Shown: piece after piece, positions 3,401 to 26,000 of the stretch
How the letters are laid out: every line of letters starts with the position of its first letter
How positions within the stretch are numbered: position 1 is the first letter of the stretch
Assembly (NCBI GenBank): GCA_944323625.1
Contig: CALUTD010000002.1
Location: 102,168 to 166,167, forward strand
Direction: 5' to 3'
DNA: 64,000 nt
Origin: Candidatus Gastranaerophilales bacterium
GTDB taxonomy: Bacteria > Cyanobacteriota > Vampirovibrionia > Gastranaerophilales > Gastranaerophilaceae
The notes under the pieces: generated by a model
What the model saw: the letters and a program-made list of their open reading frames with translations, nothing else
Told to the model about the DNA's origin: nothing
Databases searched by the model: none
Position numbers and translations under genes: made by a program

Positions 3401-3679
3401 GCCAAATATTTGCGAGATGAAGGCTATGAAGTAAAAGCCGGTAAAATTCTTGCAGGTTTAAGTGCCGATTTAACAGTTACATCTCCGTCAGGGAAAGTAC
3501 TTATTATTGAATGCGACGGAGTTGAAGATAACATAAAATCGAATAAACCACAGATTATAAAACAAACTTTACTTGAAAGAACAGGCGCAACAGTTGAAAG
3601 AATTTCAGCCAGGGAATGGCATGTAAGCCCTCAAGGTTGTATTGCAAGAATTAAAAATATATTTGAAGATATTACTTAA
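497..3679 (+). CDS. SF1B (Upf1/DNA2-like, AAA_11/AAA_12) helicase with a C-terminal Vsr/DUF559-like PD-(D/E)xK module
   Basis: 1060-aa ORF. Helicase motifs present: Walker A GPPGTGKS (nt 1553-1576), motif II AIIDEASQ, VIVGDDKQLPH, ISPFRGQ, TFQGDERD and NVAITRARKK. A coiled-coil insert lies between motifs I and II. The last ~100 aa (FEKEVAKYLRDEGYEV..SADLTV..LIIECDG) resemble a restriction-endonuclease-fold tail. The helicase call is firm; the nuclease call is tentative. Confidence 0.8.
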   Translation: MLQEATKILNSAFHNSFIKRLSLYLHDCVREEVQSSTFRNLKQDKENKWIFLETENQDKNTSLLSNEKLFTSYPQPLKLDGSDSYLTELMLLSENSQKDKYLIYGYLFLVGKNAKTKRKNEFLTPLLYSTCKLERTGMNIECSILEEGLSLNTAALTSLMNLQGEEDEIDNMLDGLLDVVPKLPLKEEDLSIFLTTLKSLIPDLEFELNKEENLENNVEDDSNDFYQDKQINYENLQEAIEEAESDKPKQKLKADKVVLTNKSAVILTKRPLVTAGVLYELMQIAEKPSGVIRETALNIVNEEYLQGKGKMASKIIKENNFKDFVAVTPLSLSDSQEDVIKNLEDNSILSVYGPPGTGKSQTIVNLICHLISNGKTVLVASRMDKATDVVADRLNEFGAPFLALRAGRPNYQKQLSFDLQDLISNKVDLDTNFENSLVVDVDDMYKLVMSIRERENKCEEIIKLEQDWYQITKEKEEKENQIGELEFLNNKLTLQEIDEIDNAIKNLEKNSEKQGFFSDITTKFANYQLKKIIQNKNFKPDFENLERLKTELIIARLAAQARYKEAQIFKTGNIHSLLEEIKVLKRKQKTLAVEILKGKRRNSLKGLLRDQIKRQRLIVHTKALVTRKKNLQNRLLEDEDFKPLLEAFPCWCTTTYAVSNSLPLKPGLFDVAIIDEASQCDIASCIPILYRCKKAVIVGDDKQLPHLSFLEKSKEQSFLSQYEIPDKYQLMWRFRTNSMFDLANYYSSRPVLLDEHFRSYAPIIDFSNKEFYGGRIRIMSKCNSNDVLELIQVPDGKVDAEMTRNMPEVEAIMQRLQEIIQDDERRKDSHTPVSVGIISPFRGQVELIKKAVHQLFSESVIRKHKIEIGTAHTFQGDERDIIMLSWAVANNSFNQSLTFLQIPNLFNVAITRARKKQIIFLSKDPKTLPAGLLRDYIEFVQTYIDRNKVQEELNLDDNIYKNSFEKEVAKYLRDEGYEVKAGKILAGLSADLTVTSPSGKVLIIECDGVEDNIKSNKPQIIKQTLLERTGATVERISAREWHVSPQGCIARIKNIFEDIT

Positions 3680-3688
3680 TATATATAA

Positions 3689-3697
3689 GGGGGGGGG
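3689..3697 (+). repeat. Homopolymer G9 tract, 10 nt after the helicase stop codon
   Basis: Direct count: g at positions 3689-3697. Confidence 0.95.
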
Positions 3698-3797
3698 TGA
3701 CAATCCAAGTAACAATATATTAAAACTAATACTCAAGTTTACATTTGTAAAAATTAGGGAAGATATGATAGTATAAAGCAAATAAGGAGATAAAATT

Positions 3798-4530
3798 ATG
3801 AATAAATTAATTGACCACTACGGGGGGGGGTAGAAACAGAGTAGTTTTTAGAATACTCTTTTCTTCACAAAAATTTTCATTTACACTTGCAGAAGTACTA
3901 ATAACACTTGTTATTATCGGAGTTATTGCAGCTATAACGGTTTCTTCTTTAATTGCTAATACCCAAAAACAAGAATATATTTCAAGATTAAAAAAGGCCG
4001 ATTCCGTTTTAAGACAGGCATTATATAAAGTCGCAATTGACTCGGGATATCCTGTTGGTGATTTTTCTTTTGTTTCAGATTATGAGTTTTTTGATGTTCT
4101 TAAAAAACATCTGAATACTATAAAAGTTTGTACAAAATCAGGTCAAGACTGTTTTCCTTCCGGTACAAAAACTTTAAAAGGGCAATTTCATTCTGATTAT
4201 AATAATATTGTATCATATTACACTCCGGCTTTTGTAACAGCTGACGGAATTGCGTTTAATTTTCAATGTTACGGAAGTGAAAAGTATTCATTTCAAAATA
4301 AAGGAATTTCAGAAGAAGATATTGAAAATGCACTTTGCAGAATTATGATAGATGTAAACGGGCAAAGTTCTCCCAATACATTTGGACGTGATTCTTTTTT
4401 TCTAATTATAGTAAACGGTAAAGGAGTTGTCGCAGCAGGGAGCGGAAATGACTCTGCAGATTGCAGCAAAAACGATAAAGGTTTTACATGTGCCGCACGA
4501 GTTTTGAAAACCGGTAAAATGGATTACTGA
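3798..4530 (+). CDS. Type IV pilin/pseudopilin-like protein (prepilin-type N-terminal FTLAEVLITL helix), out of frame as sequenced (phase-variable)
   Basis: RBS AAGGAGA at 3784-3790 and ATG 3798 give MNKLIDHYGGG and then stop at TAG 3831. The body (track ORF 3811..4530, ...RNRVVFRILFSSQKFSFTLAEVLITLVIIGVIAAI...) lies in the +1 frame. Eight or eleven G would restore the frame. Confidence 0.8.
3822..3830 (+). repeat. Homopolymer G9 tract inside the pilin leader codons (slipped-strand switch candidate)
   Basis: Direct count: g at positions 3822-3830, flanked by tac...tagaaacag. Confidence 0.95.
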
Positions 4531-4917
4531 TTAATTCTTTTTTGTATTTTCCAAAAAAGCCCTTATACACTGGTTTATGCTTGCCGGGGTACTTAATGTA
4601 TTCTTTCTTTTTCGCTTATTATGCTTTATATTGGAGGTTTCAATATATTCATAATTGTTATTATCGGGTTTTATTCTTTTTTTATAAAAAAAGTAAAACC
4701 CATAAATAACCAAAATACACAAAAACATTACCCCGAAAGATATTGCAATTTTCCCCATAACAAACGATAATTCACTATTTGCGGCCGAAGATTGTTCGCT
4801 TTCTAAGTTTAAAGGTTCAGAAGAGACAGAAACAGTAGTTTCTGTCTCTTTAGGTAATTCGGGTATAACAGTATTAAATAAATCACTGTTTGCAGCAATA
4901 ATATAATTATTATGCAT
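4531..4917 (-). CDS. Small single-pass membrane protein, function unknown
   Basis: 128-aa ORF with one hydrophobic helix (IAISFGVMFLCILVIYGFYFFY). It overlaps the rne stop by 8 nt, so it belongs to the same operon. Confidence 0.55.
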   Translation of the reverse strand: MHNNYIIAANSDLFNTVIPELPKETETTVSVSSEPLNLESEQSSAANSELSFVMGKIAISFGVMFLCILVIYGFYFFYKKRIKPDNNNYEYIETSNIKHNKRKRKNTLSTPASINQCIRAFLENTKKN

Positions 4918-6736
4918 TTACAACCGCTTCACTTTCAGTTTTCTTTTTATTTTTAGAAGGTTTTCGCCCCGGTTTCTTTTTTGGAGTTTGTTGTACATCA
5001 TCTTCTGATATACTTACCGTTGAAGGTTCATCCGGCTTAACTTCTTGAACAGTTTGAGCTTGTTTTCTTTTTCTGCCGGCGCCTCTTTTTGGTTTCTTTT
5101 CAGATTTTGTTTCTTCAACCGGCTCTTCAATTACAGGCTCTTGTAAACCATTTGTTTCAGATGGAATTAAAAGTTGTTTTTCTTCCTGCTCAATAACAGC
5201 CTGTTCTTCAAGCACAACGGGCTGTAAATCTTTAATTTCTTCAATTATTTGTTCTGAAACCTCAGATGGTTTATTGTTTTCCTGTCTGCGATCATTTCTG
5301 TATTTAAAGTTTTTCTTTTGATTATTATTATACTGATTATTTTGATTGTTATTTTGCCCGTTATTCTGTTGTACGGCAGAATTTTGTTCTGTTTCTAAAA
5401 GCGGGTTATTATTAGGATTATTAAATACCTTGTTCTGTTTATAATTAGGTGTTTTATTTTTTACCTGTTGAACAGGAATTTTAAGTTTTGCTGCTTTTGC
5501 TTTAATTTCACCTTCTGCAACGGGAGAAGAGAATGTTAAATCATCGGCAATATAACCTGTTCCCTGACAGTGAGGACATTTTTTTCCAAAAATTTCCGAT
5601 AAAGCTTGCCCCTGACGATGTCTTGTGAGTTCTACCAAACCCAAATCAGATAACTGACCTACTTGAGGTTTTGCTTTATCTTTTTCAAGCGCAATTTCAA
5701 GCTCTTCCATTACTGCCAGTTTATCTTTTCTGTTGTTCATATCGATAAAATCTATAATAACCATACCGCCGATATTTCTAAGCCTTAACTGGCGGGCAAT
5801 TTCATGTACTGCTTCAAGATTTGTTTTTACAATAGTCTCATCCTGCGTATTTGAACTTACAAATTTTCCGCTGTTTACGTCAATAACGGTCAAAGCTTCT
5901 GTTGTCTGTACAAAAAGGTAGCCGCCGCTGGGAAGATTTACTTTTGTTTGAAGTGCTGCTTTTATTTCTTTTACGACTCCGGAAGCAGCCAAAAGAGTTT
6001 CAGAACCTTTATAAACGTTTACTTCAATATTTTTTGTCATATTCCAATTTTGCAAAATCTGTTGTGTTCTGTGAACACCATAAGAAGTATCCAAAATTAT
6101 TTCGTCGACATCCTCGGTGCATTCTTCTCTCATAACTCTGTATAACAAATCCTGATCTCTATATAAAAGACTTGGAGCAGGTCTTGTTTCTGCAGCCGTC
6201 ACGATGGTATTCCATTTTTCAAGCAAAATTTCCAAATCTTCCTGAATATCGGCATCTGACTGACCTTCTGCTTCTGTTCTGACTATAACACCGACTCCCA
6301 CGGGTTTTAGTAGTCCGATTATTGATTTTAATCTTGCTCTTTCTTTCATATTTACTATTTTTTTTGAAACATTAATACCCGTTTCTTGAGGCATTAAAAC
6401 TAAAAAACGCCCCGGTAAGCTTATCAGAGTGGAAACTCTCGGCCCCTTATGCCCTACGGGTTCTTTTACTACCTGAACAATAAGTTTTTGTTTCGGAGCA
6501 AGTTTCTCTTTTAAAGTTCCTTTTCCTATTGCATCATGAGCATGCAAAAAGCCCATCTTATCATATCCGACATTTACAAATGCCGCATCTATACTGGGGA
6601 GTATATTATCTACGGTTGCAAGATATACATCATTAAGAAGCATATCCCCTTTCTGAACATAAAATTCACAAATTTTTCCGTCTTCTATAACTGCCGCAAT
6701 ATTATCTCTTTCAGCTACAACTATTGCTTTTGACAT
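4910..6736 (-). CDS. rne: Ribonuclease E/G family endoribonuclease
   Basis: N-terminal S1-like region; MVIIDFIDM catalytic-core motif; CPHCQGTGYI zinc-link motif. The tail is long, rich in N/Q and K/E, and of low complexity. Confidence 0.85.
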   Translation of the reverse strand: MSKAIVVAERDNIAAVIEDGKICEFYVQKGDMLLNDVYLATVDNILPSIDAAFVNVGYDKMGFLHAHDAIGKGTLKEKLAPKQKLIVQVVKEPVGHKGPRVSTLISLPGRFLVLMPQETGINVSKKIVNMKERARLKSIIGLLKPVGVGVIVRTEAEGQSDADIQEDLEILLEKWNTIVTAAETRPAPSLLYRDQDLLYRVMREECTEDVDEIILDTSYGVHRTQQILQNWNMTKNIEVNVYKGSETLLAASGVVKEIKAALQTKVNLPSGGYLFVQTTEALTVIDVNSGKFVSSNTQDETIVKTNLEAVHEIARQLRLRNIGGMVIIDFIDMNNRKDKLAVMEELEIALEKDKAKPQVGQLSDLGLVELTRHRQGQALSEIFGKKCPHCQGTGYIADDLTFSSPVAEGEIKAKAAKLKIPVQQVKNKTPNYKQNKVFNNPNNNPLLETEQNSAVQQNNGQNNNQNNQYNNNQKKNFKYRNDRRQENNKPSEVSEQIIEEIKDLQPVVLEEQAVIEQEEKQLLIPSETNGLQEPVIEEPVEETKSEKKPKRGAGRKRKQAQTVQEVKPDEPSTVSISEDDVQQTPKKKPGRKPSKNKKKTESEAVVNA

Positions 6737-9261
6737 AATTTTTCCTTTTCTGAATCCTTATAACTTAACTCATTCATATTTTCGTCATAGAATTTAGTTC
6801 TTACAATTCTGAACTTAACATCAGGCCTAAACAATCCGATTACATCTTCAGGTTTTACGGACGGTATATCCATTGATTGCCCTGTTTTTAAAATCATATA
6901 CAGAGTATTATTTTTTACTTCTGCAGATTTTATTGACGGTTTAATATTAACAAGTTTTTTAATACCTTTTTTATTTATCTTCTCAATTAATATTTCATCC
7001 TTCGAAGATATCATATTTTTAATATACAACAAATCTTCATTTTTTAAAATACCCTCTTTTAACGAAGTAAAAGTATACAATGCCCATTGTGCAGTTATAT
7101 CAATAGATGGGGTATTTTTATCAATTTTTACTGAATTTATTACATTTATATTATTGGGCAGAACATTATTTAATATATTTGTTAATTTATCAGGGGGTAA
7201 ATCATTATAAATCTCTATATCAATTAATTCACAAATACTTTCAACAAAAATCGGAAGCGCAATACCGAGCGAAAATTTTGGTGACGGATTAAAACCTTGT
7301 GAAAAACATAAATCAAGTCCTGAACGGTATAACGCTTTTATAATTGTATTTTGCCAATCTAAATGAGATATATATCTCATTTCATTTTCTTTTGTAATTT
7401 TAATTCTGTATCTGTATGATATACGTTCTTTTGTATTTTCAACATTATTCTGAGTATATTCAAACGGTTTATCCAAAACTTTATGAGTCTTAAAATTTTT
7501 ACATACACCGCAATTTACACACATAAACTCGCAAGGAGTAATGTTTACGGCATTCATTGCATTATTATACTGCTCAATAAGCCATTTTTTATCAATTCCC
7601 GTATCAATAATATCCCATGGGAGTTCTTCATTAATACAAAAACTTTTTTGTGCCTCTTCATCTATATTGAAGCCGCATTCAAGTGCCGTCTCTTCCCACA
7701 AATTCTTATCTATATTTTCATCCCATGTAGAAAGGTATACTCCTTTTTTATGAAGTGACAGTATGAAATCATTGTATTTGCTGTCGCCTCTTGTTAATGC
7801 ACATTCAACTTTCGAAGTAAAACTATTGTGATAATTGAGTTTTACACCTTTTATAGATTTTACTTTTTCTTTTAAATATATTATTTTTTCTCTTACACTT
7901 TTTTGTGACTCTTGAGGACACCACTGAAAAGGCGTAAAAGGTTTAGGAACAAAAATTGAAACCGTACAGGTTAAATTTAGCCCATCTTTTAATTCAAATT
8001 CTTTTTTTATTTGTTTTGATTTATATCGTATTTTTGCAAGTAATTCTGCCATTTCATCTAAATCTTCATAAGTTTCGGATGGCAGCCCTATCATAAAATA
8101 CAGTTTTACATTTGTAAATCCTGATTTATAACATTTTAAAATTGTGCTTATAATTTGTTCTTCACTAAGATTTTTATTAATTACATTCCTTAATTTTTGG
8201 CTTCCTGCTTCAGGAGCAAGAGTAACTGTTGTTGAGCGAACTCCTCTGACCAAATGCGCCAGTTTTTGGCTGTATCTGTCTATTCTTTGGCTTGGAAGAG
8301 AAACCGATATTCTTTTTTTATTCATTTTTTCGGAAAGTGTTTCAATAAGACTTTCTATATTCTGATAATCATTTGATGACAACGAAAGAAGCGAATACTC
8401 ATTATATCCCGACAAAGCTGTTGATTCTTCAACCATTTTGATAATATCGGAAGCTTTTCTTTCACGAACGGGAAGATTTACATGCCCGGCCTGACAAAAT
8501 CTGCACATTCTTCCGCAGCCTCTTCTTATTTCAACTATCGTTCTATCGTGTATTCCCGATGAATAGGGAACGGGAGATTTTATTATTTTTGTATCACGGG
8601 AAATATCATATATTCGTTTTTTTGTTTTATTTTCTTCTTCGGGAGAAAATATTCCTTCAATTTTTGATAATTCTTTTATTATTTGTTTTCGATTTAAACC
8701 TAGTTTTTTTAATTCATAATAATTTTGCATAAGTTCAGGCAAAAGCTCTTCACCGTCACCAATCATGAATAAATCAATAAAATACTGAATAGGGCGCGGA
8801 TTAAAACAGCAAGGACCGCCTGCCGTTACTATAGGCATTTCTTCTGTTCTTTTCTTTCTTAAAACAGGGATTCCCGATAATTTTAGCATTTCAAGTACTG
8901 TTGGATATGCAAGCTCATATTGAAGTGAAAATCCGATAATATCAAAATCTTTAACCGGTTTCTTGCTTTCAAGCGAAGAAAGCAGCCTGTTTTCAGATAT
9001 TAAAATTTCACGGTAATCGGTTTCGGGAGCATAAACTCTGTCGGCCATAAAATTTTCGTGAGAATTAATAACATCATAAAGTATTTTTTGGCCTAAATTG
9101 CTTATTGCAATCTCATATTTATCAGGGAATGCAAAGACCATTTTAACCTTTGCAGCATCAAAATCTTTGTTATATGCCAAATATTCCGACCCTATATATT
9201 GATATGGCTTTTTTACATTATATAAATTACACTGGGTATCTATAGGTAATTCTGTATTCAT
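6721..9261 (-). CDS. Radical SAM protein fused to a DUF2344-like C-terminal domain (TIGR03960 + TIGR03936 type)
   Basis: 846 aa with the CGRMCRFCQAG (CxxxCxxC) cluster motif. The N-terminus resembles a B12-binding-like region. The C-terminal ~230 aa (YRYRIKITKENEMRYISHLD...) matches the radical-SAM-associated domain family. Confidence 0.7.
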   Translation of the reverse strand: MNTELPIDTQCNLYNVKKPYQYIGSEYLAYNKDFDAAKVKMVFAFPDKYEIAISNLGQKILYDVINSHENFMADRVYAPETDYREILISENRLLSSLESKKPVKDFDIIGFSLQYELAYPTVLEMLKLSGIPVLRKKRTEEMPIVTAGGPCCFNPRPIQYFIDLFMIGDGEELLPELMQNYYELKKLGLNRKQIIKELSKIEGIFSPEEENKTKKRIYDISRDTKIIKSPVPYSSGIHDRTIVEIRRGCGRMCRFCQAGHVNLPVRERKASDIIKMVEESTALSGYNEYSLLSLSSNDYQNIESLIETLSEKMNKKRISVSLPSQRIDRYSQKLAHLVRGVRSTTVTLAPEAGSQKLRNVINKNLSEEQIISTILKCYKSGFTNVKLYFMIGLPSETYEDLDEMAELLAKIRYKSKQIKKEFELKDGLNLTCTVSIFVPKPFTPFQWCPQESQKSVREKIIYLKEKVKSIKGVKLNYHNSFTSKVECALTRGDSKYNDFILSLHKKGVYLSTWDENIDKNLWEETALECGFNIDEEAQKSFCINEELPWDIIDTGIDKKWLIEQYNNAMNAVNITPCEFMCVNCGVCKNFKTHKVLDKPFEYTQNNVENTKERISYRYRIKITKENEMRYISHLDWQNTIIKALYRSGLDLCFSQGFNPSPKFSLGIALPIFVESICELIDIEIYNDLPPDKLTNILNNVLPNNINVINSVKIDKNTPSIDITAQWALYTFTSLKEGILKNEDLLYIKNMISSKDEILIEKINKKGIKKLVNIKPSIKSAEVKNNTLYMILKTGQSMDIPSVKPEDVIGLFRPDVKFRIVRTKFYDENMNELSYKDSEKEKLCQKQ

Positions 9262-9591
9262 TTATGCTAAATCTTCCGGAACATATCTTTCTACATCTAT
9301 GACAACTCCGTATGATTTATTGTTTCTAAATTCATTTAAAAATTTTAAAAGAGAATCATAAGGAACTTTATATTTGTATAAAGAAACCCCGACACCGTTT
9401 TTTTTCATAACCGTTACAATATAAAAACACATTGAAGCGTAATCAAGCAAAGCCTCTTCTTTAAAATAATTTCCATTCTCATCTTTTGAAATTTTAATAT
9501 ATGGAAATCCTTTGAAAAATCTTTGATTTTCTAAATTGTTTTTGCTCTTTTTAAATAAATTAATAACTTTATCATTATGGTTGTCAGACAT
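9262..9591 (-). CDS. Hypothetical 109-aa protein
   Basis: The ORF abuts the radical SAM start with no spacer. No motif recognised. Confidence 0.5.
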   Translation of the reverse strand: MSDNHNDKVINLFKKSKNNLENQRFFKGFPYIKISKDENGNYFKEEALLDYASMCFYIVTVMKKNGVGVSLYKYKVPYDSLLKFLNEFRNNKSYGVVIDVERYVPEDLA

Positions 9592-9647
9592 ACTACAATT
9601 GAATCTGATTTTAAGTCTACAGTCAAATTTTTAACAAATGTTCAATA

Positions 9648-10433
9648 TTATTTGCATTCCCTTTTTCCGCCCCAGGATAAATCACTGCACCTTAGGTAGT
9701 CCATATTTTCATTATAAATTACCCACGCAGTGCAGCCCATTCCGTTAACATAACTGTCATACGCACTACCAAATTTCTTAGTGTTTGTACAATACTTATA
9801 AAAAGAAATATGGTCTCCGTTTGTTCCGATAGGGTAAATTTCATCTTTTGTAAAATAAAAATCAAATAAATCACGACCCATAACATTGGGATTTTTATTT
9901 CCGTTTATGTCAACATTTATGTGACCGCATACATTCTTTACTTTTCCATATGTAAAACTACAATTCTTATTCCATGCTCTAAATTGAAAAACAAGCCCGT
10001 TAATTGTTTTAAATGCAGAATGAGTTTGTGTATTTAAATTCCTATAACAATTTTTTATTGCTTCTGCAGACGTCATATCCGTACAATCAGTTTGAACCTT
10101 CATATAAGGTATAAATTTTTTAGCAAGAATTTTATGTGATATATCATCATACATTCCCTGCATTCCCCATTCATCAGGACTTCCCTCATCTTTTAATATC
10201 ATTCCGTATGCTTGAGAAAGCATTGAATAGGCCTGTTTTACTCTTTGTACCGTTGCTTTTTCCTGTATATCCGTAATTAAAATCATAATGGTTATTGCGG
10301 CAATGACCCCTATTACAACCAAAGTAATTAAAACTTCCGAAAGAGTGAATGAGAAATATTTACAAAGGAAGGAGTTTTTAAAAAGTAACCTGTTTCTACC
10401 CCCCCCCCCGTGGCGGTTTAATGATTTATTCAT
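9648..10433 (-). CDS. Type IV pilin/pseudopilin-like protein, paralog of 3798..4530, in frame
   Basis: MNKSLNRHGGGGRNRLLFKNSFLCKYFSFTLSEVLITLVVIGVIAAI... with a Cys-containing globular C-terminal domain. AGGAG (plus-strand ctcct 10442-10446) sits 8 nt from the ATG. Confidence 0.85.
   Translation of the reverse strand: MNKSLNRHGGGGRNRLLFKNSFLCKYFSFTLSEVLITLVVIGVIAAITIMILITDIQEKATVQRVKQAYSMLSQAYGMILKDEGSPDEWGMQGMYDDISHKILAKKFIPYMKVQTDCTDMTSAEAIKNCYRNLNTQTHSAFKTINGLVFQFRAWNKNCSFTYGKVKNVCGHINVDINGNKNPNVMGRDLFDFYFTKDEIYPIGTNGDHISFYKYCTNTKKFGSAYDSYVNGMGCTAWVIYNENMDYLRCSDLSWGGKRECK
10399..10409 (-). repeat. Homopolymer G11 tract (C11 on the plus strand) encoding the GGGG of the pilin leader
   Basis: Direct count: c at positions 10399-10409. 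Confidence 0.95.
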
Positions 10434-10556
10434 AATTTCTTCTCCTTTTTAATTTATATTACTATATTTTCAAAATATATCAAATATTGATTCATAAATC
10501 TTAATATATAAGCAAATTTTATGTTTCACCGATTTTAAACGTAAAGGGCAAAGGAA

Positions 10557-13307
10557 ATGTCTATGATTATTTCTTCAATTAATAATATTTCACCTTCTAA
10601 AATTTTAAATAATAAGAATACTATAACTTCAAATAAAGTAAGTGTTCTTGAAAATGATGTCTTCGAAAGAAAAAACATCTCTTTCGGATATAGTTATGAT
10701 GATTATTTTAACTATGAAAATGAAGATGAATTAACTTCAACTATACGTAAAGAAATATATGAAATAAAATTGCAACATTATTTGAATGTTTTTACGGATA
10801 AAAACATTCAAAATAAACTTATGTCCTACAAAAAGATGAAAATATCAGATTTTAATAATATGTATAATGTTGAAGCTCTGATAGATAAAAAGTTCTTAAA
10901 TGAGTTTTTAGATGGAAATGGAATTAAAACATTAGCTCAGTTACAAAATTTTATTAAATTTGGATTTTCAAACAAAGAAACAAAAAATGTTTTTAATTAC
11001 CAAAATATAGAAGCACTTGAAATATATGGATTGTTAAATTCAAAAGATAGCTTAAATAAATATCCACAAATGCTTTTATACTTATATAAAACAGAGAAAG
11101 CAAAACCCGAGCCGAATTTCGATAAATTAAACACTTATTCCAATTTCTTAAAAGAGATGGGGTTAAGTAATTTTGATAATTTTAATATCAAATTTTCTCA
11201 TCTTAAACCAAAATTTAATGACTTTGAAAGTATCACCGATCAAATAGATGCAATTGACTATATGATGGATACGTATGATGACAAAATTGATTATTTAAAT
11301 AAACTTATCAATTCAAATTCTAGAATTGTAAAAAAAGATGCAAGAACTCTATATAAAAATCAAAATGATATAGTTGAGTGTATTTACGGACAAAAAGACA
11401 GTAAATCTTTCTATAATTATTCATCCTTAATGGATTTAGTTTTCTCAAGTGACAAATTCTCGCGCTTAGCATTAAAAAATGTTGAACAGTATTTTAACAA
11501 TTTTGAAAATCCTGAAGATAAATTAGAATTCTACAAACTTCTAAAAAGTTGCAATGTTACCATATCTGAATTTAATAATTTATGCAGCAAAACAATATTA
11601 TCAGATTGTAATCCAGTTGATAATATTATAAACAAAGAAATAATTCCTGAAAATCTATCTAAATTTTTTGATAGCGACAAGCAAAAAGCCAATGAGTTTT
11701 ATTTGAAATTCGGCGGCATTGTAAATGCATTATGCGAACAAGATAACTTGCAAGGTTTTTCTAGCCTATTGAAAATTATTGATAAATACGAGTTAAAAAC
11801 TCAAGATGATATATTAAAATTCTATAATAAATGTTCAAATACGAAACAAAAAAGTATAACTTCCAAAGAATTAACAGATTTTATTGAATTATTTAATTAT
11901 GCACCTGATGAAAATGTTATTCAAAGAGCAAAAACAAAAAATGTTTCGGCTGTTGAGTATTTAAAATTACGAAAAGAAGAATTTAAAAACTTTGAAGGAG
12001 ATATAAGTCAGTTTTTATCAGAAGATAATACAGGATATTTTGCCGGTAAAAAACTTATAGAAATTTTTAATAAATATAAAGAAGCAATCAGACAGAATCC
12101 TAAAAACATATCAACCACTCTAAAAAATATAGTTGATTTTAATATATCCGGCTCAGAAGAATATAATAACAATCTTGCCCAAATCAACAAATTTTTAAGA
12201 CATTTTCCTGACAGAAAATCAGTTTTAAGGTTCATATCTGATAATAATATCAGTTTTGAAAATACAAAAGAAGCATCAGAATACCGGGAAAACTGCCTTG
12301 AAATTTTGGACATTCTAAATGACAAAAATAATATTAAACAATCACAAAAGAGAATTAAACAAATTTCCGAATCAAGGTTTTTGCCTTCATCTGAATCAGG
12401 TTTAACTACATTCTTAAAAGGTTTTAACACTCTTGAAGAAAAAAGAGAAATATTAAACATAATTGCAGACAGAAAAGTCCCTTCTTTAAGACAGTGGCAT
12501 TCTTTTTTAATTAAATATAAAGCTCAAAAAGGCAGTTATGACAAAGATGTAGTAAAATATTTTAACTCTATTGATGAAAATATTAATTTTAAAAGTATTA
12601 CACAACATTTAGATACTTTGCAAAAAGAAATAGATAAATATGGTATTGATGCTAAAATTACCGCACAAAATATGTCTGCGGCCAAAATTGATTTATATAA
12701 TCCTCAGGATTTTTATAATATGCTAAATAATCTTATTTCTAACGGAAATGAAAAGGCTAATTTTATTTCGAGCCTTCCATATACATTTAAAGAAACCGGC
12801 GATAACTATAATGCTTTTCAAATAGCTAATGAAATAGTGGATCAAAATATATTAACCCATAATAATAAATATGAAAACATACCAAGATTACTGGGTATTA
12901 ATAATGTAATCAATTCACAAAATCAAATAAAAACACTTTATTCCTTAATTGAAATTATTAAATCATGTATTCCTCAAAAATTTATAGATTTCGTTAATTC
13001 TAATGAATGGCTGGATTTCTCTTCAGAGGGTAAAATTCCTAACATATCTTTGCACGCTAAATTAAGAGCCATAGACAGATTCGCCCTGGCTGATGCAAAA
13101 ACAATTGATGAACTTTATTCTGATAAAACAAAAAATTTATTACAAGATTTATTTAGAACAATCTATATACAAACCCCAAAAAACGTTAAACGAGCTGATA
13201 AAGAAGATTCAAATCGCCTTGTAGTATATACAAAAAATAATAAAGACAAAATTAAAACAGTTTTTACCAATAAAGGCTCAATGATTACAGTTGTGAAAAG
13301 AAACTAA
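10557..13307 (+). CDS. Large (916 aa) N/K/I-rich hypothetical protein with no signal peptide
   Basis: Long uninterrupted ORF with genome-typical composition. The C-terminal ~85 aa (SLHAKLRAIDRF...LVVYTKNNKDKIKTVFTNKGSMITVV) weakly resemble DUF4258-type small toxin modules. Confidence 0.6.
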   Translation: MSMIISSINNISPSKILNNKNTITSNKVSVLENDVFERKNISFGYSYDDYFNYENEDELTSTIRKEIYEIKLQHYLNVFTDKNIQNKLMSYKKMKISDFNNMYNVEALIDKKFLNEFLDGNGIKTLAQLQNFIKFGFSNKETKNVFNYQNIEALEIYGLLNSKDSLNKYPQMLLYLYKTEKAKPEPNFDKLNTYSNFLKEMGLSNFDNFNIKFSHLKPKFNDFESITDQIDAIDYMMDTYDDKIDYLNKLINSNSRIVKKDARTLYKNQNDIVECIYGQKDSKSFYNYSSLMDLVFSSDKFSRLALKNVEQYFNNFENPEDKLEFYKLLKSCNVTISEFNNLCSKTILSDCNPVDNIINKEIIPENLSKFFDSDKQKANEFYLKFGGIVNALCEQDNLQGFSSLLKIIDKYELKTQDDILKFYNKCSNTKQKSITSKELTDFIELFNYAPDENVIQRAKTKNVSAVEYLKLRKEEFKNFEGDISQFLSEDNTGYFAGKKLIEIFNKYKEAIRQNPKNISTTLKNIVDFNISGSEEYNNNLAQINKFLRHFPDRKSVLRFISDNNISFENTKEASEYRENCLEILDILNDKNNIKQSQKRIKQISESRFLPSSESGLTTFLKGFNTLEEKREILNIIADRKVPSLRQWHSFLIKYKAQKGSYDKDVVKYFNSIDENINFKSITQHLDTLQKEIDKYGIDAKITAQNMSAAKIDLYNPQDFYNMLNNLISNGNEKANFISSLPYTFKETGDNYNAFQIANEIVDQNILTHNNKYENIPRLLGINNVINSQNQIKTLYSLIEIIKSCIPQKFIDFVNSNEWLDFSSEGKIPNISLHAKLRAIDRFALADAKTIDELYSDKTKNLLQDLFRTIYIQTPKNVKRADKEDSNRLVVYTKNNKDKIKTVFTNKGSMITVVKRN

Positions 13308-15922
13308 TCTTCTTCTATATATGAAACAATTTTATTTATATTTGTATCAAAACTTGATAGTTTTTGCTCAATAACTTTCATTGTATCTTCAGAAGCTTGT
13401 CTTGTTTTTGCATATTCACTTACAACTGAAATTTCAGATACTATATAACTTAACATATCTTTCATATCATATTCTTTGTAGTCTTCTGTTAATATTTCTA
13501 TTAATTTGTCAAACTTGCTATTAAAATCATTTATTTTGTTTGTTAAATGGTTAATTTGTTTGGTTTGATTCTCAATTTTGGTATTAAATGATTCTTCCAA
13601 CTGTTTTAGTTTATTATTATTTTCTTCGGCAAGTTTTTCTATTTTTTCATTTATTAAATCAATATTAGGATTTAATGCCGTATTAATTTGAACAATTATT
13701 CCAGATAGTAAACTCTTTAGTTCCGAAATATCTTCATGTTTTAAACTGTCCGAAATATTTTCAATATCTTTTAATTTATTATTATATAAAGAAACTTCCT
13801 GTTTTAGTTCTTTAATATCATCACAAACAGTTTTTTGGATGTTAGTTTCATCTTGGGCTATCAAGCTGCTTATATCATTTTGAATTTCATTTAAAACACG
13901 CCCTGAAGCATCTACCCACTCGGCAAGATATATAAAAGCTCTGTTTAAATTATTATTTGCTATAAGACTGTTTTGAGATAATATGGATATTTTATTTAAG
14001 TGTTCATTGAGCAGACTAAATTTTATATCCGTATTCCACTCTTTTCTTTCTTTATTAAAATCAAGAATAGAGTTTTTAAATACTTCAAGATGAGATTTAA
14101 ATTCTTTATTTGCATCGTCTGCAGTAAGAATTAATTTGTTTGTTCTTAAACTTATACTTGAAATATCATCATTTAATTCAGAAAAACGTTCTTTTAAAGA
14201 ATTGATATCATTTGATGTTATTTGAGTATTATCATCTAAAAATTTGTGCAATTTTAAGAAATCAGATTCTATATCAAGTAAAGTAGAATGCATATTACTT
14301 GATATTTCATTTATTTTTTCGCTTAACTCAGGAACATTATCTACCAGGTTACTTGTTTTATCAAGCATAGACTTTATATCATCAATTTTGGAATGAAGTT
14401 CAGATTCTGTTTCTTTTATTGTGTTTTCTGAATTTTCCGAAATTTTAATAAGTTCATCAATCTTTCCTGCCCATAAGTTAATTGATGAAAGATTATCATA
14501 GATAATATCAACTTTATTAATCGTATCAACAATGTCAATATCTTCAGGCAACATTGAACTGTTTTTATCTTTAATTAGATTTATGGAATTATTTATATTC
14601 TTAAGTTCAGATGTCAAAGAAGATAAATTTGAAACTTTTTGATTAATTTCATCAACTTCACCATTAACATTATCAAGCTTTTCAGCCCAACTATTTAATG
14701 CGGAGATATTTTCATAAATAATATCAATTTTATCAGAAACTTCATCTAGCAGGTTATTTGTATTATCAATATTACTAGAATTTTCTTCAGTAACTGCCAT
14801 TGAATTGTTTATTGAAATTAATTTATTATCTAATTCAGCAACCGAATCTCCTACTTTATCTATTTTAAGCGCCCAATCGTTAAGTGCAGCAATATTGTCA
14901 TAAATTATGTCAACCTTATCTGAAATATCTTCAAAATCAATATTATAACCAAGTTTAGATGATATTATATCAAGTGCTTTATTTACTTCTTCTTTTGAAG
15001 AAGTGATTGTTTTATCAATCTCTGCTACACTTTTTTCTAATGTTTCAACACCATTTACAATATTTGCCAATTCCGTAATATTTTCATAAACAGAATTAAT
15101 TTTATCCGAAACGTCATTAAAATCTGAATTAGCTGTAGATTCCGAATATAACTTTTCAAGTGTTTCAGTAATATTACCTGCTTTTTCAACCCATGAACAG
15201 ACAACATTCAAATTATCATATATACTGCTTATTTTTAAGATTTGATTTACAATATCAGAACTTTTAATATCCGATTGTAAATTCGATATTGATGTTTGTA
15301 TTTCTTTTAATAATTCCGAAGTATCGGATATATTAATATTTTGACTATTGTTTAAATTACTTAAAATCTCTTTTATTTCATTATTAAAATCAGGGATTTC
15401 ACTTATTTTTAATGAAATTTGTTCAACATACGTATTAAGATTTTGATGAAGATTTTCAATACTTTCTTCCAATATTTTAATATTTTCACTACTTTCACCA
15501 ATTGAAGAATTTGTTTTTATTTCTGCAAGTTTTTGAAAAACATTTTCTTGTGTTTTTAATGTCAAATCCAACTGTTGTTTCTGATATTCCTCAAATTCTG
15601 CTGTAGTAATGGCCATATTTTGGTTATTTTGAATATTCTCAAGTTTCAAACCAACATCTTCAAATGTAGTTTTTAATTCATTAATATCATTATAAAGATT
15701 TTTTATAAAAGCTTCATTACAGCTGTCTATATTATAAGCAACAGATTCAAGTTTATCTTTTATTTCCTGAAAATTTAATTTGGCCTGTGTATCAGTTAAC
15801 AAATCTTCTATTGATTCAACAGAATTCTTTATTTCGGTAATATCAATTTCTTTAACCGAATTCATTGATTGAATTTTTGTACAAACATCTTCCAAAATTT
15901 CTTTATAATTATCTGCAGCCAT
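13304..15922 (-). CDS. Large (872 aa) acidic coiled-coil protein with internal ~45-65-aa repeats
   Basis: Heptad-like composition throughout. The repeat unit SDK(V/I)DIIY(D/E)NI.ALN.WA.K(I/L)D recurs at least 4 times (about nt 14365-15160). Confidence 0.6.
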   Translation of the reverse strand: MAADNYKEILEDVCTKIQSMNSVKEIDITEIKNSVESIEDLLTDTQAKLNFQEIKDKLESVAYNIDSCNEAFIKNLYNDINELKTTFEDVGLKLENIQNNQNMAITTAEFEEYQKQQLDLTLKTQENVFQKLAEIKTNSSIGESSENIKILEESIENLHQNLNTYVEQISLKISEIPDFNNEIKEILSNLNNSQNINISDTSELLKEIQTSISNLQSDIKSSDIVNQILKISSIYDNLNVVCSWVEKAGNITETLEKLYSESTANSDFNDVSDKINSVYENITELANIVNGVETLEKSVAEIDKTITSSKEEVNKALDIISSKLGYNIDFEDISDKVDIIYDNIAALNDWALKIDKVGDSVAELDNKLISINNSMAVTEENSSNIDNTNNLLDEVSDKIDIIYENISALNSWAEKLDNVNGEVDEINQKVSNLSSLTSELKNINNSINLIKDKNSSMLPEDIDIVDTINKVDIIYDNLSSINLWAGKIDELIKISENSENTIKETESELHSKIDDIKSMLDKTSNLVDNVPELSEKINEISSNMHSTLLDIESDFLKLHKFLDDNTQITSNDINSLKERFSELNDDISSISLRTNKLILTADDANKEFKSHLEVFKNSILDFNKERKEWNTDIKFSLLNEHLNKISILSQNSLIANNNLNRAFIYLAEWVDASGRVLNEIQNDISSLIAQDETNIQKTVCDDIKELKQEVSLYNNKLKDIENISDSLKHEDISELKSLLSGIIVQINTALNPNIDLINEKIEKLAEENNNKLKQLEESFNTKIENQTKQINHLTNKINDFNSKFDKLIEILTEDYKEYDMKDMLSYIVSEISVVSEYAKTRQASEDTMKVIEQKLSSFDTNINKIVSYIEED

Positions 15923-16023
15923 CTTATATTTTCTACATCCTCTTTTTATAATATTTATTCTACCAAAAGAAAAATAAAGCGTATACTTTGTTACAATTTA
16001 TGTTAAAAGTATATCCCTAGGTA

Positions 16024-16596
16024 TTAGATAAACTCTTTTATTTTCAGTAAATCTTGCTTTGTAAGCCATCTGGGAGAACCATGTTCTTCCGAATGATTTC
16101 TTAAAAGATACGAAGGATGGAATATAACGGTTGTGTCAATATTATTAAATAGTTTATACCATTTACCTCTTATTTGTGAAATTTTTATTTTGCTGCCTAA
16201 AAAGGACTTTGCACTTGTAGCACCACAAAGAACGATAACTTTCGGATTAACTGTTTTTATTTGTTCAAGTAAAAAATTTTCGCAAAGTTTTTTTTCTTCA
16301 TCAGTAGGAACTCTATTTTCAGGGGGTCTACATTTTACAGTATTACAAATATAAAAATCATCTTTTCTTGAAAAACCGCAATCTTCAATAAGCTTTGTCA
16401 ATAGTTTACCTGCTCTTCCGACAAAAGGAATTCCTGATGCATCTTCATCTGCACCCGGGGCTTCTCCTATTAGTAAAATTTTTGCATCTGCACTTCCGTC
16501 AGAAAATACAATATTTTTTCTTGTCTTACCCAGCTCACATGCCCTGCACTCTATGCATTTCGTCTTTAATCTGTTTAATTCTTCCGATTTTGACAT
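16024..16596 (-). CDS. Uracil-DNA glycosylase, family 4
   Basis: GEAPGADEDASGIPFVGRAGKLL motif plus N-terminal Cys residues (CIECRACEL). Confidence 0.85.
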   Translation of the reverse strand: MSKSEELNRLKTKCIECRACELGKTRKNIVFSDGSADAKILLIGEAPGADEDASGIPFVGRAGKLLTKLIEDCGFSRKDDFYICNTVKCRPPENRVPTDEEKKLCENFLLEQIKTVNPKVIVLCGATSAKSFLGSKIKISQIRGKWYKLFNNIDTTVIFHPSYLLRNHSEEHGSPRWLTKQDLLKIKEFI

Positions 16597-16801
16597 ACTC
16601 TCACCTACTTTATAATACTTTTTTATTTTACATTAGTTTAATTAATAATACAAATTTTGAAGAATGTTTTTTAAACAAAAGTATAACTGATAAATATAGT
16701 CATTAAGTAGAATGAATCAGTAAGTAAAATATTCTATTATATAAAAGTAAATCCTCAACTCTTCTGATTGCTTATTCTTAGTGCTCATCCCCTTCTTAAA
16801 T

Positions 16802-18184
16802 TTAAGAAGGGTTTTCTTTATTTGTTATAAGTTTGTATTTTTGCCATACATAATAAACAGGTATTCCGGTTGCTATTATTAATAAAGATTTCATAGAATT
16901 TGCAAATTTATGCATAGTTAAAGAATAAATAATAAATATTCCCAGTAGCGAAAAAAGCATACCGAATACGGAATTAATTTTTTTGCAATTTGGATATTTG
17001 TATCTGTATATAAAAATACCTATAGCAGTAAGCACATAAAAAATCAAAGCGGCGTAAATGACATAATCCAATAATTCGCTGTAATTTCCGCAGAACAAAA
17101 TAAATATACAAGACCAAAAACATTGAAGCCAAAGTGAATTTACAGGGACTTTTGTTTTTCTGTTAACAACGGCAAGATTTCTGAATAAAAGTCTGTCTTT
17201 GGCCATTTGATAATATACTCTTGCCCCTGTGAGTATAAGTCCATTTGCGCTTCCTGCAGCAGATATCATAATAATTATTGCAATTATATATTTACCTATT
17301 TCACCTGTTATATTTTGCATTAAAACAACGGCAACTATATCTTCAGGCGCTGTTTTTATTTGTTCAAGAGGTATAGAGAATGTATATAAAATATTTATAA
17401 GAAAATACAAAATTCCTACAAGCACAACACCCCAAAACAATGCCAAAGGTATATTTTTATCTGGATTTTTTACTTCTGCCGATATAAATGTAATATTATT
17501 CCAGGTAACCATTGAAAATATTGCGCCTACTGCAGCAGCAGAAATTATTTCTAAATTAGAAAATGTAAAATCACTAAAACTTAATGTATTAAAAAAATTG
17601 GATTTTATTACGGGAAGGCTACAGCCAAAAAACAAGCCAAATACTATTATAGCAAGTATGGAGAGTATTTTTGTAGCCGTGAAAATATTTTGGGTTAAAA
17701 CTCCGTATTTTATTCCTTTTGAATTTACATATGTTAAAATAATACAAACTAAAAGCGCAAAAATTTGCTGCAAAGAAATATGACAAAACGGAAGATTAAT
17801 CAAATAAATTGAAGAACTAATAAACGGGAATATTATACCGATAAACTTACCTACAGCAATACAAACAGCCCCTATTGTTGCCGTTTGTATAACCAAAAGC
17901 AAAGACCAGCCGTACAAAAAAGCAGTTAAATCATTATACATTTTTTTTAAAAACATATATTGACCGCCGTCCTCTTTTATATTTAAGACGGGTTCCGTAT
18001 ATGCCAATGCGCCTGAAAGTGAAAATACTCCGGCTAATATCCAAACAAACAATAAAAACCAGGTATTATTTGTCTGCCTTGCAATATCCGCAGATACAAT
18101 AAAAATTCCGCAGCCTATCATTGAGCCTGCAACTACAGATATTGAATCTTTTAAATTTAAAGTTCTTTTTAAATCATTGCTCAT
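16802..18184 (-). CDS. APC-superfamily amino acid permease
   Basis: 460 aa with about 12 hydrophobic helices and an N-terminal GSMIGCGIF permease signature. Confidence 0.75.
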   Translation of the reverse strand: MSNDLKRTLNLKDSISVVAGSMIGCGIFIVSADIARQTNNTWFLLFVWILAGVFSLSGALAYTEPVLNIKEDGGQYMFLKKMYNDLTAFLYGWSLLLVIQTATIGAVCIAVGKFIGIIFPFISSSIYLINLPFCHISLQQIFALLVCIILTYVNSKGIKYGVLTQNIFTATKILSILAIIVFGLFFGCSLPVIKSNFFNTLSFSDFTFSNLEIISAAAVGAIFSMVTWNNITFISAEVKNPDKNIPLALFWGVVLVGILYFLINILYTFSIPLEQIKTAPEDIVAVVLMQNITGEIGKYIIAIIIMISAAGSANGLILTGARVYYQMAKDRLLFRNLAVVNRKTKVPVNSLWLQCFWSCIFILFCGNYSELLDYVIYAALIFYVLTAIGIFIYRYKYPNCKKINSVFGMLFSLLGIFIIYSLTMHKFANSMKSLLIIATGIPVYYVWQKYKLITNKENPS

Positions 18185-24371: not shown

Positions 24372-24791
24372 TTATTCAGATTCCGAATCTGATATTTTAT
24401 CCTTTACAAATTCAACTATTTCACCCGTCATAAGAGTTGAGCTAACAACACCTTTTTTAATTCCATCAATTAAGGATTCGCCTAATTCTTCAGTATTTTC
24501 TTTTAATGTTTCAACAAATTCTGCACCGCCGGCTTTTGCTTTGTCAAGAATTGAACCTTCTTCTTCAACTGCTGCTTTGCCGCCTTGAATAAAAGCATTG
24601 CCTTCTGTAGCAATTCCATTAACTAAGAATTCGCCTAATTCTTCAGTATTTTCTTTTAATGTTTCAACAAATTCTGCACCGCCGGCTTTTGCTTTGTCAA
24701 AAATTGAACCATCTTCTTCAATTGCAGCTTTGCCGCCCTGAATAAAAGCACTGTGCTCTGCAGCATTTTCAAAAATTTTTTTAATTTCCAT
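24372..24791 (-). CDS. Small acidic protein made of two tandem 51-aa repeats, function unknown
   Basis: AFIQGGKAA(I/V)EE(D/E)GSI(F/L)DKAKAGGAEFVETLKENTEELGE occurs twice. No signal peptide or transmembrane segment. Confidence 0.6.
   Translation of the reverse strand: MEIKKIFENAAEHSAFIQGGKAAIEEDGSIFDKAKAGGAEFVETLKENTEELGEFLVNGIATEGNAFIQGGKAAVEEEGSILDKAKAGGAEFVETLKENTEELGESLIDGIKKGVVSSTLMTGEIVEFVKDKISDSESE
24476..24751 (-). repeat. Intragenic tandem duplication (period 153 nt, two ~123-nt near-identical copies)
   Basis: 24476-24598 versus 24629-24751. The first 72 nt are identical, followed by about 6 mismatches. Confidence 0.9.
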
Positions 24792-24831: not shown

Positions 24832-24990
24832 CGGGGGGGGGGAACTTTAGGGTTTAATTCGCATAATTTACAAAAATTAACAATAGTAAAATATTTTTTA
24901 ACAAAAAAATATTTACGTGGTTTTAAAATAGCATATTAATAAACAGGAACAAAAAAACATGAAAAAATTATCAAAAAATCCCCCCCCCCG
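24832..24990. promoter_or_regulatory. Segment bounded by a perfect 12-nt inverted repeat, cG10a (24832-24843) and tC10g (24979-24990); candidate phase-variation element
   Basis: Direct count of both tracts. The 135-bp AT-rich interior lies upstream of the gene starting at 24791 and contains TTGTAA-N18-TAAAGT on the minus strand, abutting the tract. Confidence 0.5.
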
Positions 24991-25127: not shown

Positions 25128-26000
25128 TTAATTGTTTAAAATATTTTTAATAGTAATACCCAAATCTGCAGGATTCTTACAAACCGTTACACCACTAGAA
25201 GTCAATGCCTGCATTTTACTTGCGGCGGTTCCCTTTCCGCCTGAAATAATAGCCCCGGCATGGCCCATTCTTTTCCCTTCCGGCGCACTTAACCCGGCAA
25301 TAAAGCTTACAACGGGTTTTGTAACATATTGTTTTATAAATTCCGCCGCTTCTTCTTCCGCACTTCCGCCTATTTCTCCTATCATACATATTACATCAGT
25401 TTCACTGTCATCTTGAAATGCTTTTAAAACGTCTATAAAACTTGTACCTATAATAGGATCGCCTCCGATACCTATACATGTTGATTGACCGATTCCAAGT
25501 TGAGTTAACTGATAAACAGCTTCATAAGTAAGTGTTCCGCTTCTTGAAACAACACCTGCATTCCCTTTTTTATGTATTGCAGAAGGCATAATTCCGATTT
25601 TGGATTTTCCAGGAGATATTAACCCCGGACAATTCGGACCTATTAGTCTTGCTCCGTTCATTTTTACCGCTTTTTTGGCATTTATCATATCATAAACTGG
25701 AATACCTTCCGTTATACATACAATAAGCTTAATACCGGCTTCCGCAGCTTCAATTATTGCACCGGCAGCAAATCTTGCAGGCACAAATATCATGCTTGCA
25801 TCGGGTTTAACTTCGTTTACCGCTTCTTTAACAGTATTAAAAACAGGAACATCTAAAATTGTTGTGCCGCCTTTTTTCGGAGTTACTCCTCCAACCAGCT
25901 TTGTTCCGTATTCCTGACAGCTCTTTGCGTGAAAAGAACCTTCTTTTCCCGTTATACCCTGTACTATTAATTTTGTATTTTCATTTATAAATATAGACAT
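25128..26000 (-). CDS. sucD: Succinyl-CoA synthetase alpha subunit
   Basis: [19 protein letters not shown] and [14 protein letters not shown] motifs. Confidence 0.92.

Follow-up and report, generated by a model that had tools for sequence, protein, structure and literature searches.

Homopolymeric G tracts in the leader-coding region of two DUF6613 pilin-like genes: a probable phase-variation switch in Gastranaerophilaceae

We analysed a stretch of 64,000 nt (the window) from a Candidatus Gastranaerophilales bacterium (GCA_944323625.1, contig CALUTD010000002.1) with regard to two genes for type IV pilin-like proteins, each with a run of G residues between its start codon and its pilin-coding part. 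Gene 1 is found on the plus strand and gene 2 on the minus strand. We call an allele ON if its tract length places the start codon in frame with the pilin and OFF otherwise. Only these two open reading frames (ORFs) of the window show a pilin N-terminus, and both carry the tract. Respective coordinates are collected in Table 1.

Table 1. Features of the two pilin-like genes and their upstream regions (aa, amino acids).
Feature	Position	Strand	Remark
Gene 1: AGGAG (3785-3789), 8 nt, ATG (3798-3800), leader codons MNKLIDHY	3785..3821	plus	sequence reading
Gene 1: poly-G tract, G9	3822..3830	plus	OFF; ATG frame hits TAG at 3831-3833
Gene 1: pilin frame after the tract, GRNRVVFRILFSSQKFS then FTLAEV...	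3829..4530	plus	intact; under purifying selection
Additional G9 tract, intergenic	3689..3697	plus	101 nt 5' of the gene 1 ATG, just past the stop of a 1060-aa helicase-like gene
Gene 2: Shine-Dalgarno sequence AGGAG	10442..10446	minus	8 nt 5' of the ATG; read from the sequence; spacing as in gene 1
Gene 2: pre-tract leader MNKSLNRH	10410..10433	minus	start codon (10433-10431) and 7 codons
Gene 2: poly-G tract, G11	10399..10409	minus	ON; C run on the plus strand
Gene 2: post-tract leader RNRLLFKNSFLCKYFS	10350..10398	minus	ends at the predicted prepilin cleavage site
Gene 2: mature type IV pilin-like protein (DUF6613), FTLSEV...	9648..10349	minus	predicted 53-residue N-terminal helix and alpha/beta head

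The minus-strand reading of gene 2 starts with the codons ATG AAT AAA TCA TTA AAC CGC CAC. The subsequent eleven G together with the T behind them provide the codons of GGGG, followed by AGA AAC AGG for RNR. From the ATG at 10433 to the stop at 9648 the ORF is open throughout (261 aa) and holds the in-frame prepilin motif FS/FTLSEV (here and below, the slash marks the predicted cleavage site). Residues 29 onward read FTLSEVLITLVVIGVIAAI, i.e., the N-terminal methylation and cleavage motif of type IV pilin-like proteins. A preliminary description of this DNA had reported an in-frame leader cassette of AGGAG, 8 nt, ATG, MNKSLNRH, 11 G and RNR for gene 2, and we can confirm every detail of it. 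The same holds for its statement that one paralog is ON and the other OFF, i.e., gene 2 with G11 is open to its stop, and gene 1 with G9 terminates at the TAG directly behind the tract.

In gene 1, 21 nt are placed between the ATG and G9, which is directly followed by TAGAAACAG. The pilin frame starts with the GGT at 3829-3831, continues with RNRVVFRILFSSQKFS and FTLAEV..., and is open to 4530. The tracts of both genes end exactly 49 nt before the Phe+1 codon, and in neither gene is there an in-frame ATG, GTG or TTG between tract and cleavage site. A functional prepilin must therefore be translated through the tract. We also considered the TTG at 3811, which is in frame at G9 and used by gene callers, as start codon of gene 1, and rejected it: it is 21 nt away from the Shine-Dalgarno (SD) sequence and is replaced by TTA in two other assemblies (L029, L030). 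It had further been proposed that the genes share a 3n+2 rule. Both window genes are indeed in frame only for tract lengths of 3k+2, because their 5' ends are homologous, i.e., the 24-nt pre-tract and the post-tract sequence are common to both; the rule is not general, however, since ON corresponds to 3k or 3k+1 elsewhere (see below).

To relate the tracts to those of other genomes, matching loci were recovered via the 109-aa gene neighbouring gene 2. All tract lengths given here are those of assembly consensus sequences, in which homopolymers of such size are error-prone. A 148-kb contig from another sample (L007) matches the window from 1262 to 17592, i.e., over 16,331 bp, with 0 substitutions and 1 indel. 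This sole difference is the gene 2 tract, which is G10 in L007 and G11 in the window. The same pattern is observed over 4 kb of L010 (again G10), and G10 is also present in L008; a diverged strain with the leader MNTSLNSH (L032) carries G11 and is thus ON. This is also reflected in the 90%-identity protein cluster of gene 2, in which 261-aa (ON) products are found on 2 contigs and N-truncated 212-aa (OFF) calls on 10 contigs; one of the ON products (P0372), on a contig of 178,829 bp, is identical to that of the window. For gene 1, we observe G9 in the window, L007, L029, L030 and L031 and G10 in L028, such that 6/6 are OFF. That is, the locus shows what is expected of a contingency locus: homopolymers of at least 8 nt in the 5' coding region (G11, G9), whose length changes shift the frame between start codon and ORF, and, at the level of assemblies, length polymorphism among near-identical genomes.

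The same layout, i.e., SD sequence, ATG, 8-11 codons, poly-G, long leader and FTLAEV, is shared by three other Gastranaerophilaceae species, where the tracts comprise 9-14 G and single 90%-identity clusters contain ON as well as OFF alleles. The second species (L002/L003, GCA_944323725.1) encodes two tandem DUF6613 genes, each with AGGAGG, ATG, 11 codons and poly-G. Their tracts (G12 and G11) are both out of frame with the SD-linked ATG, and ON would require 3k+2 and 3k+1, respectively. In the third species (L021-L027), two tandem genes carry near-identical cassettes of AAAGGAGG, 7 nt, ATGAATAGTCAGCAAT..TT, Gn and CTCGCGG. The tract of the downstream gene is G11 in 4 loci (ON, 304 aa), G12 in 2 and G13 in 1 (OFF, called with 276 aa), and a 305-aa cluster member with GGGG (P0359) implies a G14 allele; the upstream gene shows G12 in 5/5 loci. 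The fourth species (L033-L036, human gut) has AAGGAG, 7 nt, ATG, 9 codons and poly-G. Here, the tract is G10 in 4/4 loci, which is OFF with a stop two codons later, while the ON allele P0007 (RLSGGGQGN) implies G9, so that ON corresponds to 3k.

A side observation concerns the upstream paralog of the third species (L021, 270-345), where the cassette is followed by a near-consensus promoter-like TTGCAA-17-TATAAT, the SD sequence GAGGT and ATG AAA AAA GGA, i.e., the start of a short-leader gene (MKKG/FTLAEV).

Beyond these species, a search for the cassette word had been suggested. We ran it on the GTDB species representatives using at least 6 G followed by TAGAAACAG plus a pilin start (GGGGGGTAGAAACAG, 36-44 nt, TTYACNYT) and obtained one match only, from a Blautia metagenome-assembled genome (MAG; 46-52% GC). 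It has no pilin context and was rejected as a chance match. The exact cassette of the window thus appears to be present in no GTDB species representative.

Given that gene 1 is OFF, we also investigated whether its coding part is maintained. No stops or indels interrupt the 234 codons of the post-tract frame in any of the five distinct gene 1 sequences. The ratio of nonsynonymous to synonymous substitution rates (dN/dS) is 0.10-0.16 for pairs with dS between 0.13 and 0.20. Judged from these comparisons, the OFF gene 1 is no pseudogene and is under purifying selection. This is the appearance of a contingency locus: selection keeps the gene intact, yet every consensus shows it out of frame.

The tracts are also exceptional within the window. 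We count 14 overlapping matches of G/C runs of at least 8 nt compared to 0.13 expected from shuffles, i.e., long G/C tracts are far beyond chance. Their length distribution is bimodal with few runs of 5-6 nt and then 9, 9, 10, 10 and 11 nt; A and T runs, unlike G/C runs, show a smooth fall-off. The GC content of the window is 32%, and GGG is the rarest glycine codon of its genes (12%).

Concerning the encoded proteins, the products of both genes can probably be assigned, on sequence grounds, to the DUF6613 family of type IV pilin-like proteins. The cleavage motifs FS/FTLSEVLITLVVIGVIAAI (gene 2) and FS/FTLAEVLITLVIIGVIAAI (gene 1) combine a small residue at -1, Phe+1, Glu+5 and a hydrophobic helix of about 20 residues. 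At -1, both window genes have Ser, other strains have Ser or Cys, and most homologs have Gly or Ala. Scores for Pfam N_methyl (PF07963) are just under the cut-off (19.2 and 20.6 bits vs. 21.2 bits), with the pre-cleavage positions of the profile unmatched; the scan of gene 2 reports E=8.7e-4, and many homologs pass the curated threshold. The N-terminal region is also matched by the NCBIfam model GspG (E=1e-5), and relating the family profile to solved structures yields the N-termini of PilA, PilE, GspG and geopilin chains (E=1e-6 to 1e-3). For PF20318 (DUF6613) itself, scanning gene 2 gave no match at E<=0.01, and the precomputed match on the 212-aa form is marked weak. Homologs of gene 2 at 40-81% identity carry PF20318, and the C-terminal motif CTAWV.YNENMDYL, which is shared with the family, is present in gene 2. 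An AlphaFold (AF2) model of the gene 2 protein, based on 39 homologs, reaches a predicted local distance difference test (pLDDT) score of 89.9. It shows a helix from 31 to 83 (53 residues) followed by an alpha/beta head, and residues 1-30 are unstructured with low confidence. Foldseek found no match in the PDB for the whole model or the head (best E=2.3).

A word-indexed search provides 138 homologs of gene 2 at E<=1e-3, most of them with PF20318, with or without PF07963. The exhaustive profile search yields 4,560 clusters (50% identity) at E<=1e-30, i.e., the DUF6613 pilin-like family is very large and diverse. Names of cluster members include Ca. Scatousia, Ca. Stercorousia, "Brachyspira sp. 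CAG:484" and "Fusobacterium sp. CAG:439"; we take the latter two to be wrongly named melainabacterial bins. The typical leader of the family is short and classical, e.g., MKKG or MKKA. Among 139 family representatives, GGG is found in the called leader of 12 (usually within the first 25 residues), a count that misses OFF alleles, and in the mature part of about 230 residues of 4. By these numbers, the long tract-bearing leader is an add-on in a minority of the family's genes.

Two groups of homologs show further leader variants. In P0029, P0055, P0068 and P0376, the leader holds a partial duplicate of the pilin N-terminus (FTLAEGATHV...), with the real FTLAEV located 15-40 residues further on; this resembles the outcome of insertions that stay in frame and duplicate their target at the 5' end of the pilin gene. 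Within the subfamily of gene 1, the members P0494, P0486, P0487, P0469 and P0476 show leaders of 26 residues with a comparable layout and an apparently decayed Gly run (SGGGD, RGVGL, HGWGL, RGCGL, PGIGL). Such runs may be tracts that were broken by point mutation, i.e., genes that are locked ON.

Taken together, we interpret the tract as a contingency locus, i.e., a simple-sequence-repeat phase-variation switch in the 5' coding region of a DUF6613 pilin-like gene of Gastranaerophilaceae, and assign to this reading a probability of roughly 80%. The sole SD-bearing start codon is found 8 codons 5' of a run of G9-G11, and up to the cleavage site the prepilin frame 3' of the tract lacks a start codon. 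According to the model, slipped-strand mispairing in the course of replication would alter the run by at least one G and thereby move the ATG into or out of the pilin frame. In the ON state (G11, gene 2), a prepilin with a basic 28-residue leader containing Gly3-4 would be produced, which the prepilin peptidase would cut before Phe+1 prior to a presumed assembly into the pilus. Since the run lies in the leader that would be removed, the mature protein would be identical for all in-frame variants (G8, G11, G14). OFF alleles (G9 for gene 1, G10 for other gene 2 alleles) would yield a peptide of 11-12 residues. The paralogs would switch independently, which would result in a combinatorial set of surface pilins. 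The slippage rate, the reversibility within a clone and the selective agent, which may be phage, host immunity or adhesion, are parts of the model that we infer. The view that the pilins evolved as independently switchable genes and are no sequencing accident, as put forward in the preliminary description, is supported by the recurrence of the tract at an identical site of independent assemblies, which stem from several studies, by its length polymorphism, the same layout in at least three other species, the purifying selection that acts on the OFF gene 1, and the conservation of the cassette (see below).

Several observations weigh against a switch. Gene 1 is nearly invariant in tract length (G9 in 5/6 assemblies) and ON in none of the six. 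The difference of one base in a homopolymer of 10-11 nt could be an Illumina or assembler error, and assemblies break or turn chimeric at the tracts (L008, L018). The residue before Phe+1 is Ser instead of the canonical Gly, such that cleavage of the 28-residue leader is assumed. Within the window, no gene for a prepilin peptidase or the pilus machinery was found. (For Gastranaerophilales, pilA, pilB, pilC, pilT and pilD have been reported from Ca. Gastranaerophilus termiticola; PMC5877343.) Finally, the short-leader gene of the third species (L021) may be expressed whatever the length of the tract in front of it, i.e., the tract need not control expression there.

An improbable alternative places the mechanism mainly at the RNA level. 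Here, the frame would be restored in some messages by slippage of the transcribing polymerase or by frameshifting of ribosomes on the G run, the tract would tune expression, and OFF would mean leaky, low expression. The maintenance of an intact gene 1 that is OFF in all consensus sequences would be accounted for in this way, and RNA polymerase slippage on long homopolymers is established, mostly for A/T runs. On the other hand, slippage on runs of 9-11 G is, to our knowledge, less documented, and we observe ON and OFF alleles at the DNA level in the same clusters, which is predicted by a DNA switch but not needed by an RNA mechanism.

Very unlikely, in our judgement, is a scenario without any switching, in which the tracts are real, their length differences stem from sequencing or assembly errors, and the out-of-frame genes are decaying pseudogenes. 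Homopolymers of 10-13 G are error-prone, the assemblies show breaks and chimeras at the tracts, and gene 1 is OFF in every assembly examined, which would all be in accordance with it. It conflicts with the gene 1 ORF, which is intact over its 234 codons in five strains with dN/dS values of 0.10-0.16 at dS up to 0.20. Moreover, the third species has one tract of variable length (11, 12, 13) next to another of equal size that is G12 in 5/5 loci; this is unexpected from length-dependent error alone, albeit in a small sample. Finally, the position of poly-G within the leader is kept in four species despite fully diverged flanks. Concerning the assemblies themselves, L018 is a chimera at 1450-1460, where high-GC foreign DNA is joined to the locus at the poly-C run, and L008 shows an N scaffold gap and garbled bases exactly at the gene 1 tract (equivalent to window positions 3776-3831).

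The cassette also behaves as a unit. Detectable DNA similarity between gene 1 and gene 2 begins about 40 nt 5' of the ATG and does not extend beyond the N-terminal helix. Using ungapped comparison with shuffles as well as BLAST, the identity of the window genes is 73% for the 45 nt before the tract, 73% for the 30 nt after it and 66% for the region of the N-terminal helix, while the head domains show 26% protein identity and no DNA similarity. For the paralogs of the third species, the respective values are 91%, 90% and 67% with 22% protein identity of the heads. That is, within a genome the conservation of the cassette between paralogs exceeds that of the rest of the gene. (A gapped global-identity measure was discarded, as it results in about 75% identity even for shuffled sequence.) Between species, cassettes are unrelated, with pre-tract leaders of the form MNK..H, MQN.II..KL, MNSQQ.L and MENTVKTRLS. 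Furthermore, L001 (1963-3039) holds a copy with 98% identity to window positions 9273-10349, i.e., to the mature part of gene 2 and the downstream 109-aa gene. This copy has the short leader MKKN, no tract and other upstream neighbours (ferritin, HhH-GPD), and the Phe+1 codon marks the exact limit of its homology to the window. Contigs that break within gene 2 would be expected for samples containing both copies, and five contigs of the window's locus do so (10122-10203). These relations point to a concerted evolution of the 5' ends of the pilin genes or to an exchange of modules there, which we treat as an open possibility rather than a result.

Least credible of all is that the SD-ATG-poly-G segment was left by a 5' module that is portable or gene-converted and spreads among pilin paralogs by recombination, with switching as a side effect and not as the selected function. 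The 73-91% identity of the segments around the tract in paralogs with such diverged heads (22-26% protein identity, no detectable DNA similarity), the unrelated cassettes of different species, the L001 copy with its different leader and the L021 cassette upstream of a complete short-leader gene would fit, but this is compatible with the switch rather than opposed to it. Moreover, the cassette is not flanked by repeats, transposase or recombinase sites, and the other three G tracts of the window have no flank similarity to it.

Extending the contingency-locus reading to the whole family leads to a picture that we consider rather doubtful. In it, the pilins of Gastranaerophilaceae would form a large combinatorial phasome, based on a leader module that is portable and consists of SD sequence, ATG, 8-11 codons and poly-G. 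The module would be homogenised within a genome by gene conversion or recombination and swapped on and off pilin genes at the Phe+1 boundary, such that constitutive short-leader genes would become stochastic switches. Point mutations that interrupt the run (SGGGD, RGVGL, HGWGL) would lock a gene ON.

We also inspected the remaining long tracts and the surroundings of both genes. The flanks of the window's other three G tracts show no similarity to the pilin cassette (P>0.05, shuffles), so that these tracts are not further copies of it. One of them is the G9 tract upstream of gene 1 (Table 1). The same site is GGGG or AGGG in L028-L031, and by this comparison the tract is a strain-specific expansion. 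The gene before it (497-3679), directly upstream of gene 1, encodes a 1060-aa protein that combines superfamily-1 helicase domains (AAA_11/AAA_12) with a nuclease domain (REase_MTES_1575) at its C-terminus, possibly a defence-type helicase-nuclease. The intergenic region of 336 nt that separates sucD (25128-26000) from a 139-aa gene of unknown function (24372-24791), both on the minus strand, holds two further G/C tracts of 10 nt (24833-24842 and 24980-24989). One of the two ends 41 nt 5' of the ATG of the 139-aa gene and is interrupted in L017 (C8GTCA); the other follows a plus-strand mini-ORF of 7 codons (ATGAAAAAATTATCAAAAAAT-C10). The 139-aa gene itself contains an internal tandem duplication of about 160 nt with 91% identity, as seen from off-diagonal BLAST matches.

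Promoter and terminator scans around both pilin genes gave counts not above shuffled expectation, and an Rfam scan over the window reported three tRNAs only and nothing at the pilin locus. The EF-Tu of the window (51778-52986, minus) shares 93% identity with its counterparts in Candidatus Limenecus avicola and Ca. Spyradomonas excrementavium, which are both Gastranaerophilaceae (Melainabacteria), and the host is assigned to this family accordingly. The remaining genes of the window are housekeeping genes, i.e., RNase E/G, radical SAM, succinyl-CoA ligase, Mur ligases, leucine- and tricarboxylic acid (TCA)-type enzymes and tRNAs.

Closest among known systems are pilC1/pilC2 of Neisseria gonorrhoeae and N. 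meningitidis, which have a homo-G tract in the signal-peptide region and show RecA-independent ON/OFF frameshifts (PMC5354566). Common to both systems are the homo-G run in the leader-coding region, two paralogous copies with independent switching (proposed for the window genes), and the connection to type IV pili. In contrast to the window pilins, PilC acts as tip adhesin and assembly factor, is large and carries a Sec-type signal peptide instead of a class III (prepilin) leader. Also the host differs, i.e., a proteobacterial pathogen compared to a melainabacterial gut commensal, and we found no sequence relationship of the window genes to Neisseria pilC. A repeat in the leader-peptide region is further known from the Neisseria opa genes, where about 11 paralogs are each ON or OFF independently, which provides a combinatorial surface repertoire (PMC5354566). 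As predicted for the window genes, the opa repeat is part of the leader and leaves the mature protein unaffected; it differs in being a pentamer (CTCTT), and its products are outer-membrane adhesins, not pilins. Moraxella varies its pilin by DNA inversion. In Neisseria, pilin variation is also achieved through pilE/pilS gene conversion (PMC5354566). For these two, the outcome, i.e., type IV pilins of variable expression or sequence, is alike, but the mechanism is recombination or inversion and not repeat slippage.

A general survey of homopolymeric tracts in prokaryotic genes reportedly puts emphasis on their 5' ends. In Campylobacter jejuni, poly-G targets are mainly genes for glycosyltransferases, capsule and flagellar modification, and we know of no pilin leaders among them. 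The likeness to the window is that of an AT-rich gut bacterium with few long G/C tracts, both intragenic and intergenic. C. jejuni lacks mismatch repair, and its G tracts of such size show measured indel rates of 1e-4 to 1.6e-3 per division (PMC8355987). Homopolymeric tracts located inside coding genes have been proposed, as title and abstract put it, as a general regulatory mechanism in prokaryotes (PMC2831843); title and abstract mention neither the DUF6613 family nor the Gastranaerophilaceae lineage nor a placement in prepilin leaders. Looking for literature that links DUF6613 or pilins of Melainabacteria/Gastranaerophilales to phase variation, we found no paper. What we describe is probably a new case of a well-known kind of switch, here in a lineage that is unstudied and a pilin family that is large and uncharacterised.

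Gut Melainabacteria are, as far as we know, uncultured, and almost nothing is known of their dealings with hosts and phages. Gene callers systematically truncate tract genes to products of 212, 234 or 276 aa without signal sequence, and as a result the pilin repertoires of MAGs are under-annotated. The ON/OFF states themselves can be read directly from existing metagenomic reads. If the switch holds lineage-wide, Melainabacteria would share the bet-hedging strategy of Neisseria, Campylobacter and Helicobacter, and pili would be indicated as the surface under the strongest diversifying pressure.

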